From assembly GCA_046160585.1 (NCBI GenBank), contig JBJXGN010000298.1, forward strand, positions 1 to 64,000: a DNA stretch of 64,000 nucleotides. Direction: 5' to 3'. The position numbers and the translations under genes are program-made. Below the pieces are notes generated by a model. That model saw only the letters and a list, made by a program, of their open reading frames with translations, did not search any database and had not been told where the DNA came from. How positions within the stretch are numbered: the stretch's first letter is position 1; the number at the start of each line of letters is the position of its first letter. This DNA is from Kofleriaceae bacterium. GTDB lineage: Bacteria > Myxococcota_A > Polyangia > Haliangiales > Haliangiaceae. Shown piece by piece: positions 16,209-23,243 of this stretch.

Positions 16209-19200
16209 ATGCGGACCAGCGCGGCCACTCGAGTTGCCATCCTCGCCTCGCTCACGCTCGGCATCACGGCATGTGATGAAGAGCTGCAGGTGACCCCCCT
16301 CTATAACCATGCGAACAGCCGCATCGTTATCGAGCTCAACCAGGGCGTTGACGGTGAGATCTTCACCCGCGCTCGTCGCGGCAGCTTCGGGAAGCTTGAC
16401 TGCTCCCAGCTCGTCAACGAGGTGGAGTCTATCTCCGCGAACGAAGGCCGCAACGACGGCCCGATCGTCGACCAGGACCTGACGAAGCCCTTCTACCAGG
16501 GCGAGCAGTGGCTCAACCCGACGCCGGAGATGATCGCGCAGGCGCAGGCCGGCACGGACTCCATCATCGACGTCTGCATCATGGACGGCAGCGAGATCGT
16601 GTTCCAGCAGGAGCGCGACCTGTTCGCCGCGTGGGACAAGGCGCGCAGCAAGGGTATCGGCGGCAAGGCCGACGACCCGAGCGGCGAACAGCGCCTCAAC
16701 AGCCCCGAAGCCTACGCGGAGCGCTGCGTCGACCAGCTCGGCGAGATCCCCTTCTTCGAGAAGCTCGGCGAGGGCGACTACGGCACGTACAACTGCCTCG
16801 ACTCGACCCCGATCCCGATGACCGTCACGGCCGCCAACGGCACGGTCAACGCGCCGCAGATGGGTGAAGAGCCGAAGTGCGACAACCCGCAGTACATCTA
16901 CTCGCTCTGCGAGGCCGGCCCGCGCGTCGCGAGCCGCACGAACGACCAGGGCACACGCTGGGTGCTCCTCTGCCGCAAGAGCGTGGCGGAGTCGGGCAAC
17001 GGTGGCAGCTACTCGTCGTCGAAGTTCAACGACATCGCGATGATCGGTACGAACCCGTTCACCGGTAAGACCTGCTTCTTCCAGAACGCGCTCTACCAGA
17101 AGACGGACGGCGCGAAGGTCCCCCACCCGGGTGACAAGGTGAAGTCGTCGAACCTGTGGGCCGGCGTCCACGGTGGTATCGGCTCCGGCATCCAGTGCGG
17201 CGAGTGCCACGACACCGACGCGTTCATCCACACCCCGTGGATCGACGGCGCGAAGGATGCGAACGGCCGCCCCGTGATCCCGAAGATGGGCGTCGATGCC
17301 GACTTCGCGCTCGGCGCGAACGACACCCCGTACGCCATCGTTAACCGCAAGGGCCAGGGCTGGACGATGCCGAAGCACACCACGGGTGCGGCGGCGAACG
17401 CGTGCACCAAGTGCCATCGCATCGGCGACGGTCGCTGGGCGAAGTCGTGGATCTCGCGCCTCGAGGGTGGCGACACGGCGTGGAACAACATCACCACCGC
17501 ACACGGCCTCAAGCCGGAGAACAAGTACTGGATGCCGACCGACCACGTGTTCGCGTCGGACGCGGAGTGGAACGCGTCGCCGGCGAAGGCCGCGATCGAC
17601 TTCATCCAGGCGTGCGCGACGACCCCGACGGGTGCAGGCTGCGACTGGAAGCCGGTCCCCGAGACGCTCGGTGGCGCGGACGTGGGTGGACGCCTGCGTA
17701 ACCCGGTCAACCTCTCCGATGACGAGCTCGCGAAGCAGGCGACCACGCTGCTCGGCATGAACAAGAATGCGCTCAAGAACAACTGCACCGACTGCCACGT
17801 CGGCAACCTGGCGACGCTCCAGGATTGGACCGAGAAGACCGAGGCTGCGCTCGAGACGGCGTTCAAGGATGCAGACGCGCAGGGCGAGGAAGTCAACAGC
17901 ACGTCCGCGGGCATCCGCGTCGACAACAACGACTTCAAGGAGGTCGGCGAGTACGAGGTGGCCGCGGGCTCGCTGATCGAGGTCTCGATCCAGGGCACAG
18001 GCGACATCGACCTCTACGTCCGCCGCGGCGCGCAGGTCTCGCAGACGCAGTACGACTGCCGCCCGTTCGCCCAGACGTCGACCGAGAAGTGCGACAAGAC
18101 GATCTTCAACGCGGCCGGTCCGGCGACGTTCTACGTCGGTCTGTTCGGCTCGGATGACGGCACGGTCAAGGTCACCACGAAGTACCGCAAGCCGTTCCCG
18201 AACGGGATGCCCGCGAAGGACCGTGTTGCGCAGTTCCGCCTCGACCCCGAGCGTAACGACTCGCCGTTCAACCCCAGCAAGCTGGGCATCTTCTCGGCCG
18301 GCTCGCACCTCGGTTGGTTCCAGGACACGTTCAAGCAGGCGTACCCGGACGGCCAGGACGGCAACAACGCCGACACGTGGGCGCTCGAGTACGGCAAGTT
18401 CAAGAACCGCGTGTCGATGCCGAAGGGCAACCACCCGCGCTTCACGCAGCCGGAGTTCGACATCATCGCCGAGTGGTTCGCTCGTGGCATCCCGCGCGCC
18501 TCGGTGTACCTGCCGGCCGACACGGGCCCGACCTCGTGCACGCCGTCGGTGACCGCGGGCATGACCCAGCACGTGACGCAGATGGCGACGCAGGGTTGGA
18601 CGGCGATCAACCGCCAGGCGAACATGAACATGTACGGCTGCCCCTCGGGCACGACCGATCCGAAGCAGTGCCTCACGTCGACCCCGAACGCGAGCACCAA
18701 GTCGTACGGCATGGGCTGGACCAAGGTCGGCACACTGCGCGTCGTTCGCGAGCTCGCGTTCGAGACCTTCTACTGGATGCGCTCGTCGGCGGACGGTCGC
18801 TTCGTGGCGAACGGCTCGCGCTCGGGTGGTGAAGGCTCGGTCATCTCCGACCTCACGACCGACAAGGACATCCAGGTCGACGCGGCGTACGACCCCGGCT
18901 TCTTCCCGGATAACCGCGGCTGGATGTTCCAGGGCACGCCGATCGGCGCCGCGTTCTGCAAGCAGTCGCTGCTCACGTCGAACCCCGACGTCATCAACTT
19001 CTCCGAGTCGGCGTGCTCGTCGGTCGGTACGGTCAGCCTCTACCAGCACATCGGTGCGGGCCTCGGCGGTGCGGACTACTTCGCGGTCAACAGCCAGTTC
19101 ACGTCGGATAACCCCGGCGCGGGCGAGACCGGTGACCCGGCGTCGGCGTTCGGTGCGGATGCCGAGATGAAGTTCACGCCGATGGTGTTCGACGGCAACC

Positions 19201-21554: not shown

Positions 21555-23243
21555 TTGGACGTGCGTCGGTTCGTTTTCTGCGCGGTGCTCGTTGCGGGCT
21601 GCGGGCCCGACGACAAGACCACCGAGTGCGATCTCGGATCGGGGATGGGTTCTTCGACGAGCGCCTCGCTGATCCAGGACCGGCGCGTGACCGGCGCGGC
21701 CGTGCAATACGCGGCGGATACAGGGCTCGCGGCGCGCGACGAGGAGCTGCGTACGTCGATCGCGGCACGGCGCGCGGTCGCGTGGGACGTCGTGCAGAAG
21801 GTCCTCGCGCCCGTGCCACTCGGAGATCCACGCCTCGCGACCAGCTTCGGCGGCACGCAACCGACGGTGCCGACGTGGGCGACGTGGTACGCGCGCGATG
21901 ACTTCGAGCGCGTGTTCAAGCATCTGTACGAGGGTCTCGGTCCGTCGGGACGCGTGTCGCGTGCGCCGATCGATCCGGAGGCGGGCTTCGCGTGGAACGC
22001 GGTCGCGCTCGACGAGGTTCCCGAGTGGCCGGAGCAGAGGTACCTGGACTACCTCGCGTCGATCGACACGCCGGAGTTGGCGCAGGGTCTCGCCAACGCG
22101 ACACGCGTGGGCTACTCGCCGGGTGCGCTCGGGCATCTCTTGAAGAGCTACGAGCCGATGCACCAGTGCCGGTTGAATCCGGCGCCCGACGCGTTCGATC
22201 CGAGCGAGATGCGCGAAGGACAGCCGACGACCGCGCGCGAGCAGCTCGCGCTCGACAAGTGCACGTGGCGCGTGCTCGGCCCGTTTCAGGCCGGCGACGC
22301 GCCTGTCGAGGTCACGTCGCGCGGGACGGGAGATGCGGACATCTACGTGCGTCGCGGTGAGGCACCCGACGCGGCGACGTACGACTGCAAGTCCGACGGC
22401 GATTCGGCGAGCGAAAGCTGCGAGGTCGACGGAGGAGGACCGGTGTGGGTCGCCGTGTTTGCCTCGAGCAACGCCGAGGTCGAGGTAGACGTCGCGTATC
22501 AAACGGCGGACGTGCGGTTGCCGACGTGTTTGGGTGGCGAGATGCCACGCGACGCGGTGATCGTGAAGGCCGACTGGCGGCGGCAGTTCCAGCTAAACGA
22601 TCTGATGCCGGTGTTCAACACGTCGGCGGATCGGATGACAGCGCGGTTCGCGAGCGAATCGCTCTGGAACGAGGATGGCCAGCAGGGGCCGGGTGCCGAG
22701 GACATCTACACGATGATCATCCCGTCGACGGGGGCGCGCTTCCGTCTGCCGGCGCTGCACATCATGACGAAGGAGCTCGATCACTGGCTGTGGATTACGT
22801 TGTGGTACTCGCCGTTCCCCGACACGGACTTCGGCGCAGATCGTCCGGCGGCGCTCGCGAGCGTCGGGCCCTGGCGGAACTACAAGATGTGCGTCGCGAC
22901 CCAGTACCTCGAGGGCGATCCGGATCCGCGCGGAGGGTTCTCGGGGACGCTCGGTGACGCGCTCGCCGCGGTGAATCGCGGGACCGATCAGCCATCGTGG
23001 TGCTCGAACCCATACCTCGAGCTCGGGCCCGGCAACGCGGCGACCAATTGCATCGGGTGTCATCAACACGGCGGCACGGAGCTGACCGCGGAGGCGATCC
23101 TCGCCGACCAGCCGCACTTCGGTGTCACGCGCGTGCGCAACAATTTCTTCACCGACTATATGTGGGCCGTGAAGGGCGGCGGCGGTGAAGATCTTTCGGC
23201 GATCGTGCAAGCCGAAGTCGACTACTGGGACGCGAACGATTAG
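21555..23243 (+). CDS. Secreted lipoprotein with a PPC domain and a C-terminal CxxCH motif, architecturally related to the 16209-19718 protein
   Basis: TTG/GTG start with lipobox CAVLVAGCG. PPC-like GTGDADIYVRRGEAPDAATYDCKSDGDSASESCEVDGGGPVWVAVFASSNAEVEVDVAY. NCIGCHQHGG motif near the C-terminus. Confidence 0.7.
   Translation: MDVRRFVFCAVLVAGCGPDDKTTECDLGSGMGSSTSASLIQDRRVTGAAVQYAADTGLAARDEELRTSIAARRAVAWDVVQKVLAPVPLGDPRLATSFGGTQPTVPTWATWYARDDFERVFKHLYEGLGPSGRVSRAPIDPEAGFAWNAVALDEVPEWPEQRYLDYLASIDTPELAQGLANATRVGYSPGALGHLLKSYEPMHQCRLNPAPDAFDPSEMREGQPTTAREQLALDKCTWRVLGPFQAGDAPVEVTSRGTGDADIYVRRGEAPDAATYDCKSDGDSASESCEVDGGGPVWVAVFASSNAEVEVDVAYQTADVRLPTCLGGEMPRDAVIVKADWRRQFQLNDLMPVFNTSADRMTARFASESLWNEDGQQGPGAEDIYTMIIPSTGARFRLPALHIMTKELDHWLWITLWYSPFPDTDFGADRPAALASVGPWRNYKMCVATQYLEGDPDPRGGFSGTLGDALAAVNRGTDQPSWCSNPYLELGPGNAATNCIGCHQHGGTELTAEAILADQPHFGVTRVRNNFFTDYMWAVKGGGGEDLSAIVQAEVDYWDAND

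Follow-up and report, generated by a model that had tools for sequence, protein, structure and literature searches.

Does the run of four lipoprotein genes in this DNA encode one redox or metal-handling module of the cell envelope, and which of its members belong together? The window, a stretch of 64,000 nucleotides from a Kofleriaceae bacterium, carries these genes, here called g1 to g4. They share the + orientation, and every translation begins with a lipoprotein signal and its lipobox (ITAC in g1, LVAC in g2, LIGC in g3 and VAGC in g4):

16209-19718, + strand: g1, lipoprotein of 1169 aa (translation)
19741-19774, + strand: terminator-like hairpin with T-rich tail, 3' of g1
19890-21044, + strand: g2, PAE-family lipoprotein of 384 aa (translation, Pfam/NCBIfam)
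21056-21505, + strand: g3, small lipoprotein of 149 aa (translation, Pfam)
21561-23243, + strand: g4, lipoprotein of 560 aa, conserved partner of g1 (translation, adjacency statistics)

The intergenic gaps are 171 (g1/g2), 11 (g2/g3) and 49-55 nt (g3/g4), in line with the preliminary description of a co-directional run with short gaps. It had also reported a strong terminator after the first gene only; indeed, the sole strong terminator-like site is found 3' of g1 (hairpin at 19741-19764, 10-bp stem with 8 GC pairs, tail CTGTCGTTTT). The open reading frame of g4 was first listed as 21555-23243, but translation probably begins at the GTG at 21561, which agrees with a 560-aa NCBI protein (P0121) of 100% identity and with the gene starts at the loci L007-L009.

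What is conserved is a pair, g1 with g4 directly after it, and not a block of four genes. In species-representative genomes, g4 follows g1 directly (5-500 nt) at 45 of the 69 assessable g1 copies, from 88% down to 37% identity, and the taxa with this adjacency in the genome scan are Kofleriaceae, Sandaracinaceae and Polyangiales. At the single Bradymonadaceae locus examined, both genes overlap by 4 nt. Starting from g4 in a metagenome scan, a g1-type gene was found directly upstream in 48/57 assessable loci (long in 9, short in 25 and truncated by a contig end in 14), and one additional locus beyond these has the g1-g4 arrangement. Copies without the other gene adjoining amounted to 24 for g1 and nine for g4. 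In neither the genome scan (L007-L082) nor the metagenome scan (L091-L170) is there a locus where a PAE or CusF gene separates g1 from g4, and in genome relatives whose g1 is 85-88% identical the two genes are about 95 nt apart with nothing of this kind between them. The suggested co-conservation of the four-gene block was thus not borne out: synteny holds for g1 and g4 and fails for g2 and g3. Three short contigs (L088-L090; g1 94% identical) have a PAE gene after g1, and neither g4 nor CusF is present in the contig DNA searched. No other conserved neighbour of the pair was found, nor are substrate-pathway, cofactor-synthesis or cytochrome-maturation genes linked to it. L007-L009 have an equivalent hairpin in the g1-g4 spacer; because such a terminator-like hairpin separates the two genes in this clade, they may not be co-transcribed here.

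We regard g2 and g3 as a recent local insertion and not as part of the core pair, because the scanned loci have neither a PAE nor a CusF gene in the g1-g4 gap and because one metagenomic locus (L120) holds different cargo there, a gene for a C-type lectin lipoprotein. The assignment of g2 was confirmed by profile searches against Pfam and NCBIfam: a myxobacterial Cys-rich repeat (DUF4215/myxo_disulf_rpt, aa 30-58) precedes a PAE domain of the alpha/beta-hydrolase type (aa 76-228; 58 bits versus 26.6). NCBI names the protein "pectin acetylesterase-family hydrolase". Like pectin acetylesterase/Notum (Pfam PAE, CE13) it has the GxSxG nucleophile elbow (GASAG at aa 197), but it aligns to profile positions 20-186 of 355 only. 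Orthologs of g2 with 67-75% identity are located in unrelated gene contexts. The CusF-like nature of g3 stood only in part. Its Gly/Ser/Ala linker with repeats is followed by an OB domain (aa 61-125) that barely passes the CusF_Ec threshold (27.4 versus 27.0 bits) and carries IHH (aa 77) and MEAMTM (aa 95), similar to the His…Met-x-Met pattern of CusF from CusCFBA, but the NCBIfam CusF model fails (11.7 versus 143) and phmmer against the PDB gave no CusF structure. In our own alignment, the residue that we take to correspond to Trp44 of E. coli CusF is a Met, and there is a nine-residue insertion. A CusF-like gene adjoining the pair recurs at no searched locus, CusA, CusB and CusC were not found nearby, and the 22 window genes run against Pfam include neither Cus nor Cop genes.

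Protein g1 consists of a Cys-rich beta N-domain, heme motifs 1 and 2, a helical heme-3 domain split by a PPC domain, a Cys/His/Met-rich linker and a C-terminal six-bladed beta-propeller:

16209-16274, + strand: signal peptide and lipobox (…LGITAC, then DEE), read off the translation
17196-17210, + strand: heme motif 1, CGECH, aa 330-334 (motif scan and alignment)
17403-17417, + strand: heme motif 2, CTKCH, aa 399-403 (motif scan and alignment)
17784-17798, + strand: heme motif 3, CTDCH, aa 526-530 (motif scan and alignment)
17874-18206, + strand: PPC beta-sandwich within the helical heme-3 domain, aa ~556-666 (Pfam PPC, PDB 2luw)
18417-18425, + strand: invariant MPK, aa 737-739, followed by a conserved helix (EFDIIAEWFARG) (alignment)
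18537-18671, + strand: Cys/His/Met-rich linker (alignment), kept even in the heme-less minimal g1 forms
18726-19715, + strand: six-bladed beta-propeller, aa ~840-1169

More than 290 homologs of 50-90% identity exist, and those that are named are called "PPC domain-containing protein" only. All three CxxCH motifs are invariant in 59 aligned sequences; motif 1 is also invariant in Sandaracinaceae and Bradymonadaceae homologs and missing in short forms, whereas motif 3, invariant in 15 diverse homologs including a short form, is the only heme motif of those short forms that have a heme domain. YWMP (aa 440-443), conserved after motif 2, offers a candidate Met ligand. The MPK motif is invariant across all g1 forms with a heme domain and could be the distal Met loop of heme 3; the pLDDT of the apo AF2 model, 83 for the protein, is low at 738-743. 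The PPC was recognized by Pfam (aa 583-646; 30.5 bits, cut-off 25.9) and by a profile match to 2luw (E 8.6e-12). The linker follows the pattern C777…H788 xxx M792 … W797 … N801 … M808 x G C811 … C821, and invariant polar residues of the propeller include R858, D862, R864, D881, Y894, D895, E933, Y945, Q946, H947, Y957, D1014, K1067, E1074 and H1080.

In g4, a helical N-domain with an inserted PPC is followed by an alpha/beta C-domain with a single heme motif:

22224-22505, + strand: PPC beta-sandwich, aa ~224-317 counted from 21555
23049-23063, + strand: heme motif CIGCH, aa 499, inside the invariant WCSNPY.E.G.GNA.TNCIGCHQHGG

The heme motif and H402 (counted from 21555; H400 from 21561) are invariant in 66 diverse family members. 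Apart from the PPC (Pfam aa 246-292, 27.3 bits), the fold search matched no known fold. The preliminary description had thus correctly counted three CxxCH motifs in g1 and one in g4, each with a PPC, and the strings quoted for the latter (GDIDLYVRRG...YDC and GDADIYVRRG...YDC) are both found in the translations.

The pairing of heme motifs with a PPC, present in this stretch, is a clade-specific decoration and not the essence of the system. PPC domains are optional in the family: they are missing from the Bradymonadaceae homologs, a helix-hairpin-helix (HhH) domain takes the PPC site of g1 in Sandaracinaceae/Polyangia, and some copies add an LTD or a second PPC. g1 itself comes in short forms (~620 aa, one heme motif) and minimal forms (465-497 aa, no heme motif); in its ancestral state g1 was a short lipoprotein whose β-propeller was accompanied by at most one heme domain. 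At four Sandaracinaceae/Polyangia loci and the Bradymonadaceae locus, a C-terminal Cytochrome_CBB3 domain is fused to the g4 ortholog (E 1e-16 to 2e-19 in the four orthologs scanned).

Are the CxxCH motifs heme sites? They occur far more often than chance predicts: shuffling of the proteins gave on average 0.0096 motifs for g1 (three observed; 0/20000 shuffles reached three) and 0.0041 for g4 (one observed). Both Cys and the His stay unchanged in every motif even among homologs of only 30-40% identity, MP motifs are conserved after g1 hemes 2 and 3, and every weak match to PDB or Pfam in the motif regions is to a c-type cytochrome. As lipoproteins, g1 and g4 are both exported, which fits heme attachment too. 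The confidence of both apo AF2 models drops exactly at the CxxCH loops. Pfam and NCBIfam cytochrome models stayed below threshold on the window proteins, save for a borderline Cytochrome_C7 score on a sub-segment, where the match spans little beyond the CxxCH motifs. Excision of the PPC in silico left the class-I cytochrome match non-significant (Pfam E 0.016-0.18), and hhalign aligned just 10 residues around CxxCH. Fold searches gave no structural precedent for the heme-bearing domains; propeller and PPC were the only matches. A redox role is plausible, since distant g4 orthologs carry a bona fide cytochrome c domain; of the envelope redox or metal module proposed at the outset, this part is supported, but not the unity of the four genes.

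The proteins resemble known cytochromes in parts. As in class-I monoheme cytochromes c (Cytochrome_CBB3/Cytochrom_C), which are true fusion partners of distant g4 orthologs, the g1 heme-3 domain has an N-terminal helix followed by CxxCH, a conserved Met-Pro loop and a C-terminal amphipathic helix, but an inserted domain interrupts it, and its size is roughly double that of the class. In g4, NCIGCHQHGG weakly resembles CxGCHxxGGN of c6 and OmcF. The likeness to periplasmic enzymes that combine cytochrome and β-propeller (cytochrome cd1 nitrite reductase, quinohemoprotein alcohol dehydrogenases, PQQ sugar dehydrogenase-cytochrome fusions) is architectural only: the window proteins match no such family in sequence, the g1 propeller is six-bladed (sialidase/TolB type) whereas that of cd1 and PQQ-ADH is eight-bladed, PQQ or heme d1 signatures were not found, and g4 is a partner without a known fold. 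Unlike secreted proteases and collagenases with PPC, g1 and g4 have no peptidase domain, and their PPC is internal and dispensable. As had been surmised, no described system is matched: g1-g4 is a widely conserved, uncharacterised gene pair without a Pfam, NCBIfam or PDB family beyond PPC and a generic six-bladed propeller. With moderate confidence, we take the two proteins as subunits of a lipid-anchored, extracytoplasmic c-type hemoprotein oxidoreductase.

It is conceivable, at a rather low probability, that such a two-subunit hemoprotein acts on an acetylated glycan or extracellular-matrix polymer, with the sialidase-like propeller binding carbohydrate, PPC/HhH/LTD anchoring to the matrix (polysaccharide or eDNA) and PAE as a facultative deacetylating helper. 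PAE genes occur near the pair in no fewer than three different positions: directly after g1 in the window and in L088-L090, directly after g4 in Sandaracinaceae (L077; PF03283, E 8e-16) and two genes upstream in L004-L006; tblastn of 1.4 Mb flanking DNA gave one PAE-domain match only. However, no PAE gene was found near the pair in 73/76 genome-scan loci or in any metagenome-scan locus, and PAE-family lipoproteins are so abundant in Kofleriaceae (1542 matches) that a chance neighbourhood has to be reckoned with. Sialidases and PQQ sugar dehydrogenases are among the best propeller fold matches, but generic six-bladed propellers resemble many unrelated enzymes, and a search for Asp-box, PQQ and glycosidase signatures detected none. 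The lectin lipoprotein in the L120 gap and the polymer-binding accessory domains would fit as well.

Less probable still is an enzyme of reductive detoxification, of the peroxidase or another type, with respiratory cytochrome c feeding electrons inward via the g1 hemes to a catalytic g4 heme. The invariant CxxCH and H402 of g4, together with a near-invariant Lys-Glu on a nearby strand (HIMTKE), could form a distal catalytic pocket; the fusion of g4 to class-I cytochrome c is reminiscent of how donor and acceptor are paired in bacterial cytochrome c peroxidases, and a RoxA-like diheme gene is found near one distant pair. This evidence is purely circumstantial, Pfam revealed no CCP/MauG similarity, and the strictly conserved propeller would be left unexplained.

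We consider it very unlikely that the motifs are disulfide or metal (Zn/Cu) sites of secreted structural, adhesive or protease-associated proteins. It is true that g1 and g4 are rich in Cys (25 and 12, respectively), that no cytochrome HMM passes on their full length and that public annotation mentions the PPC only; however, the motif invariance, the cytochrome-like spacing of the MP motifs, the fusion of g4 orthologs to canonical cytochrome c, the dispensable PPC and the absence of a peptidase domain in and beside the pair argue against it. Just as unlikely is one copper or metal redox module in which g3 supplies the heme/PPC proteins with Cu(I) and the esterase participates: the short co-directional gaps, the ligand pattern of g3 (of the CusF type in our alignment to the E. 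coli protein) and the invariant His/Met-rich g1 linker, a possible Cu(I) binder, speak for it, but it is largely refuted by synteny, down to close g1 relatives and to contigs with PAE but not CusF. The marginal CusF call, the lack of Cus/Cop genes among the window genes scanned and the unrelated contexts of g2 orthologs count against it as well.

The preferred reading is the two-subunit hemoprotein oxidoreductase. Anatomy, conservation, gene adjacency, the gain and loss of domains and the cytochrome c fusion are observed; heme attachment, the direction of electron flow, catalysis by the propeller and any substrate are inferences, and no result points to a particular substrate or flow direction. 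PPC domains would be swappable accessory modules in both proteins that probably bind substrate or extracellular matrix outside the redox chemistry, and g2 and g3 would have landed in the g1-g4 spacer in this lineage. The ancient core would be a lipoprotein made of the His/Met/Cys-rich linker and the propeller, the presumed substrate-binding or catalytic part, encoded directly upstream of a ~450-560-aa monoheme protein of the g4 family. In most lineages the propeller protein would have gained a single helical monoheme domain, and in the Kofleriaceae/Polyangia lineage, including the window, also an N-terminal beta domain with two extra hemes; the resulting three-heme chain may connect the propeller site, the g4 heme and a soluble respiratory class-I cytochrome c by electron transfer.

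Four genes lie on the plus strand between positions 16209 and 23243, in high-GC DNA (GC3 0.84-0.92) from a Kofleriaceae MAG. The NCBI proteins P0121 and P0397 are 100% identical to proteins of the window. The features are:

Features of the region from g1 to g4
16209-19718, + strand: g1, 1169 aa, with CxxCH at aa 330, 399 and 526 and a Pfam PPC domain at aa 583-646
19741-19764, + strand: terminator-like hairpin directly 3' of g1
19890-21044, + strand: g2, myxobacterial Cys-rich repeat and PAE domain
21056-21505, + strand: g3, CusF_Ec match barely above the cut-off (27.4 bits vs 27.0)
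21555 or, more likely, 21561 to 23243, + strand: g4, PPC domain and one CxxCH at aa 499

A lipoprotein signal with lipobox starts the products of all four genes and that of the upstream gene at 14916-16055. The preliminary description had reported four co-directional lipoprotein genes, two of them combining CxxCH motifs with a PPC domain, and a terminator after the first; all of this is seen in the sequence. CxxCH, PPC, PAE, lipobox and hairpin were all recovered and the heme motifs exceed chance (shuffled proteins contain on average 0.0096 CxxCH against 3 observed in g1, and 0.0041 against 1 in g4), and thus the observation is confirmed.

The interpretation of the four genes as a co-conserved block did not hold. 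All window proteins were searched by tblastn in 76 loci from a scan of species-representative genomes, and neither in these nor in the metagenome-scan loci was a PAE or CusF gene found between g1 and g4. Instead, g4 directly follows g1, at a distance of 5-500 nt, in 45 of the 69 assessable g1 copies of the genome loci. This adjacency spans identities from 88% (Kofleriaceae, L007-L009) down to 37-40% (Sandaracinaceae/Polyangiales, L073, L075 and L077-L079), and in a Bradymonadaceae locus (L084) the two homologs overlap by 4 nt. Where a g1 lacks an adjacent g4, it is an additional paralog; tandem copies occur among these, and others have gained a lamin-tail domain. In L007-L009, whose g1 is 85-88% identical, the two genes are about 95 nt apart and the spacer contains, besides a similar hairpin, a TACACT-like element that is conserved immediately 5' of g4. 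Sequence searches returned more than 290 homologs of g1 and more than 490 of g4; among the 120 matches listed for each, mostly full length, identities were 50-90% and 59-100%, respectively, the named organisms were Kofleriaceae or other myxobacterial MAGs, and nearly all public names were 'PPC domain-containing protein' or 'hypothetical protein'.

What lies between the two genes differs from locus to locus. On three short contigs (L088-L090) the C terminus of g1 is 93.6% identical and a PAE gene (80% identical) directly follows g1; this is succeeded by a TetR gene or by other ORFs, and neither CusF nor g4 is present on these short contigs. A 135-aa ORF 3' of the PAE gene in L090 was checked and is not CusF-like. 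Orthologs of g2 at 67-75% identity are found in contexts unrelated to the pair. Another Kofleriaceae-type locus (L120, 4287-6001) has a 1.7 kb g1-g4 spacer with different cargo: at 5320-5982 the gene of a C-type lectin lipoprotein (Lectin_C, E 1e-11), and on the minus strand an ORF of 498 aa. Since g1 is followed by g4 without PAE or CusF elsewhere and the cargo in L120 is a different one, the conserved unit is the g1-g4 pair and not a four-gene operon, and the spacer accepts insertions. Judged from this gene order, g2 and g3 are an insertion in the g1-g4 spacer of the window lineage; apparently, the spacer is an insertion hot spot. An exact 14-nt direct repeat, TTCGGCGCCATGAA, is present at 19773-19786 and 19881-19894, 108 nt apart, and the second copy includes the start codon of g2. 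The g1-PAE spacer of L090 has a single copy, so the window carries a duplication or insertion of about 108 nt with a decoy g2 start region.

The assignment of g2 to the PAE family was borne out by Pfam (PF03283, 58 bits vs 26.6), with profile positions 20-186 of 355 covered and a GASAG at aa 197 as candidate motif of the nucleophilic Ser. For the CusF-like nature of g3 the outcome is mixed: the Pfam model (PF11604) is just reached (27.4 vs 27.0), whereas the NCBIfam model PRK09838 gave 11.7 vs 143, and phmmer of g3 against the PDB found no CusF structure. The protein carries IHH (aa 77-79) and MEAMTM (aa 95-100), a His-Met-Met ligand pattern that we take, from a manual alignment, to correspond to H36, M47 and M49 of E. 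coli CusF. An exact-sequence database look-up of g3 gave no record. Between its lipobox and the CusF-like domain lies a Gly/Ser/Ala linker encoded at 21122-21221 by five overlapping copies with a periodicity of 15 nt (…SGSAAPGSAATGTAASGSAASGSAAS…). A copper module is very unlikely: it is suggested only by this marginal gene, which never recurs with the pair, and a Pfam scan of 22 genes of the window found no CusCBA-type RND, MFP or OMF gene.

Are g1 and g4 hemoproteins? The three CxxCH of g1 (CGECH, CTKCH and CTDCH, hemes 1 to 3) and the one of g4 (CIGCH) are invariant across alignments of 59, 66 and 15 sequences over the whole identity range. Signal peptide and lipobox place both proteins, as we infer, on the periplasmic side. 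In g1 conserved Met-Pro motifs follow the heme motifs, YWMP after heme 2 and SMPKG with an amphipathic helix after heme 3. Wherever the surroundings of the motifs show weak similarity, it is to a c-type cytochrome: in g4 to OmcF/c6, in g1 to c7, NapC or CBB3. The AF2 models of g1 and g4 have a pLDDT of 83 each and lose confidence exactly at the motif loops, as expected for apo models. In addition, g4 orthologs in L073 and L077-L079 have an extra C-terminal class-I cytochrome c domain above threshold (58-70 bits), and the Bradymonadaceae ortholog also has a cytochrome c domain. Taken as full-length proteins, g1 and g4 gave no cytochrome HMM above threshold in Pfam or NCBIfam; for g1 the gathering scores of PF00034 and PF13442 were not reached, the best value being 16 bits (E 0.016) vs 27 for Cytochrome_CBB3 with the PPC domain excised. 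Cytochrome_C7 reached 25.7 vs 24.8 on aa 300-560 of g1, with a best stretch of only 12 residues around CxxCH, and 14.5 on the full length; NapC/NirT and MtrC models stayed below threshold on the window proteins. On these sequence features, covalent heme binding by both proteins is likely.

The Met-Pro motif and helix pattern make it plausible that heme 3 of g1 belongs to a class-I cytochrome c split by the PPC domain. Statistically this was not supported: the two halves matched Cytochrome_CBB3 only at E 0.016-0.18, which is not significant, and in hhalign the alignment with the fused cytochrome c domains covered no more than 10 residues around CxxCH. A relationship of the g4 core to part of g1 was rejected (profile-profile hhalign probability 0.3%).

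The C-terminal part of g1 matches the six-bladed beta-propeller fold (sialidase/TolB). Pfam detected neither Asp-box/BNR repeats nor a sialidase (GH33) family in aa 830-1169, although matches were admitted up to E 10. In every g1 form the Cys/His/Met-rich linker in front of the propeller keeps C777, H788, M792, W797, N801, M808, C811 and C821 unchanged, and the propeller itself keeps many polar residues, including H947 and H1080. Single-sequence and profile searches of the PDB with g1 and g4 returned only the PPC domain and sub-significant matches to the cytochrome motif.

The combination of PPC with heme motifs is present in both window proteins, as the preliminary description had pointed out, but is not shared by the wider family. 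The PPC domain (PF04151) is above the HMM threshold in the window proteins and has the beta-sandwich fold; those of g1 and g4 are 27% identical. In g1 it interrupts the helical domain of heme 3: the helix that follows CTDCH lies before it, and the part with the invariant MPK loop lies after it. At this site nothing is inserted in the Bradymonadaceae homolog and the short forms, and in homologs from Sandaracinaceae/Polyangia (L073, L074, L077, L081) a ComEA-like helix-hairpin-helix at about aa 600-690, corresponding to 17874-18206 of the window, replaces it (Pfam HHH/HHH_3 above threshold in L081, E 1e-4 in L077 and 1.6e-3 in L074). Of other g1 copies, P0097 has gained an LTD at its C terminus and P0120 a second PPC. 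The PPC of g4 is absent from the Sandaracinaceae orthologs and most of the wider g4 family. A Polyangiales ortholog (L078, 13399-15558) has a C-terminal proprotein-convertase P-domain (E 2e-14) after the cytochrome c domain; the P-domain is another swappable accessory beta-sandwich of the family. Because PPC is absent or replaced in other lineages, its pairing with heme is a clade-specific decoration of both subunits. No peptidase family was found in g1 or g4 with Pfam or NCBIfam, and the two do not qualify as secreted proteases with a PPC domain. HhH and lamin-tail domains are both tied to DNA binding in secreted proteins, and their presence in the g1 family hints, by analogy, at a possible tethering to extracellular DNA or matrix.

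When a g4 profile was searched, 2752 representative clusters matched at E ≤ 0.001 and 305 of them still at E ≤ 1e-30, some through the PPC repeat only; most of the g4-like matches listed have 450-530 aa and no PPC. Among 66 aligned family members Pfam found PPC only in the window protein and a cytochrome c domain in three. In 57 assessable loci of a metagenome scan carried out from the g4 side, the upstream gene was a long g1 in 9, a short g1 in 25 and a g1 cut by the contig end in 14; the other 9 had room upstream of g4 yet no g1. In the short g1, about 620 aa, the lipoprotein signal is followed by a single helical CxxCH domain, which has an MP(K/R)G loop, and then by the linker and the propeller. 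Still smaller are the minimal g1 of L161 (4526-5923) and L167 (4484-5977), which have 465-497 aa and neither heme domain nor any CxxCH; they keep linker (HVTAMSTMGW…MMMHGC) and propeller directly upstream of a g4 homolog. The low-GC locus L083 has the reversed order, g4 and then a short g1. Judged by these forms, the version in the window is a later elaboration of an older, simpler pair.

A conserved third neighbour was not found around the metagenome-scan and short-form pairs, and the Sandaracinaceae, Bradymonadaceae and short-form loci showed only housekeeping or variable genes as further neighbours, coding for CorA, UDP-glucose dehydrogenase, MOSC, hemerythrin, Kelch or fatty-acid desaturase. 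The gene just upstream of g1 (14916-16055, + strand) encodes a lipoprotein that is rich in Cys, mostly helical and unmatched in Pfam. Homologs (28-58% identity) occupy the same position in many Kofleriaceae loci and were not found in the Bradymonadaceae locus, in L083 or beside the Sandaracinaceae pairs; the association is probably synteny by descent, and the product could be a clade-specific third component. Directly downstream of g4, 23306-27907 (+ strand) encodes 1533 aa with a SUFU domain in the centre (E 1e-39). This protein is kept across Kofleriaceae loci and has an unusual size for a bacterial SUFU-domain protein; its gene is followed by a gene for a 1024-aa HEAT-repeat protein (27880-30954, + strand). 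Further upstream, the ORF at 13490-14875 (+ strand) has DUF2341 and LamG (Laminin_G_3) domains. Its listed start overlaps the end of an acyl-CoA dehydrogenase gene (11643-13781), so translation probably begins at a later position, close to the signal MLARLLVVLVAASCG.

The best-supported reading is that g1 and g4 would be the two subunits of a c-type hemoprotein oxidoreductase held in the cell envelope by lipid anchors. Its ancient functional core would be the propeller with the linker together with the g4 heme protein, and the heme domain or domains of g1 would serve as electron wire. The link from the enzyme to the respiratory chain would be a class-I cytochrome c, which some lineages carry as a fusion and which is presumably a separate protein in the window lineage; PPC, HhH and LTD would be interchangeable binding modules. 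As to the substrate, a glycan or matrix polymer may be considered: a PAE gene accompanies the pair in three different arrangements (one in the window and L088-L090, one in L077 and one in L004-L006), tblastn gave only one PAE-domain match in 1.4 Mb of flanking DNA, and the accessory domains are polymer binders, but PAE lipoproteins are common in these genomes.

The oxidoreductase proposed here resembles in architecture the periplasmic cytochrome-propeller enzymes cd1 nitrite reductase and the quinohemoproteins, but it did not come out as a member of those families in any test of membership. By their sequences g1 and g4 are genuine members only of generic classes, that is CxxCH proteins, PPC-containing proteins and six-bladed propellers. 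Apart from PPC, the pair matched no Pfam or NCBIfam family, the public names read for members of the g4 profile were 'hypothetical protein', 'PPC domain-containing protein' and one 'cytochrome c', and literature searches on Kofleriaceae cytochromes, PPC with heme and Myxococcota multiheme propeller proteins gave nothing relevant. The family is large and its pattern of domain insertion is unusual. It is tempting, though still rather tentative, to speculate that g1 and g4 define a family of extracytoplasmic heme-propeller oxidoreductases that is widespread, has not been described before and extends through Myxococcota, Bradymonadota and uncultured bacteria of sea and soil. Its g4 would have a new heme-binding fold and its six-bladed propeller would be catalytic; the His/Met-rich linker might be a metal site, and the cytochrome domain would accept the insertion of whole domains (PPC, ComEA-like HhH), which would tether the enzyme to extracellular polymers such as matrix polysaccharide or eDNA.

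With the idea of a copper-linked four-gene module corrected, the two-gene pair is the proper object of study, and its short one-heme and heme-less versions would be easier to express. If the proposal is true, g1 and g4 would add an unannotated, abundant class of cell-envelope hemoproteins and provide a natural case of domain insertion into a cytochrome domain. It would also bear on how predatory and soil Myxococcota route extracellular substrates into respiration.
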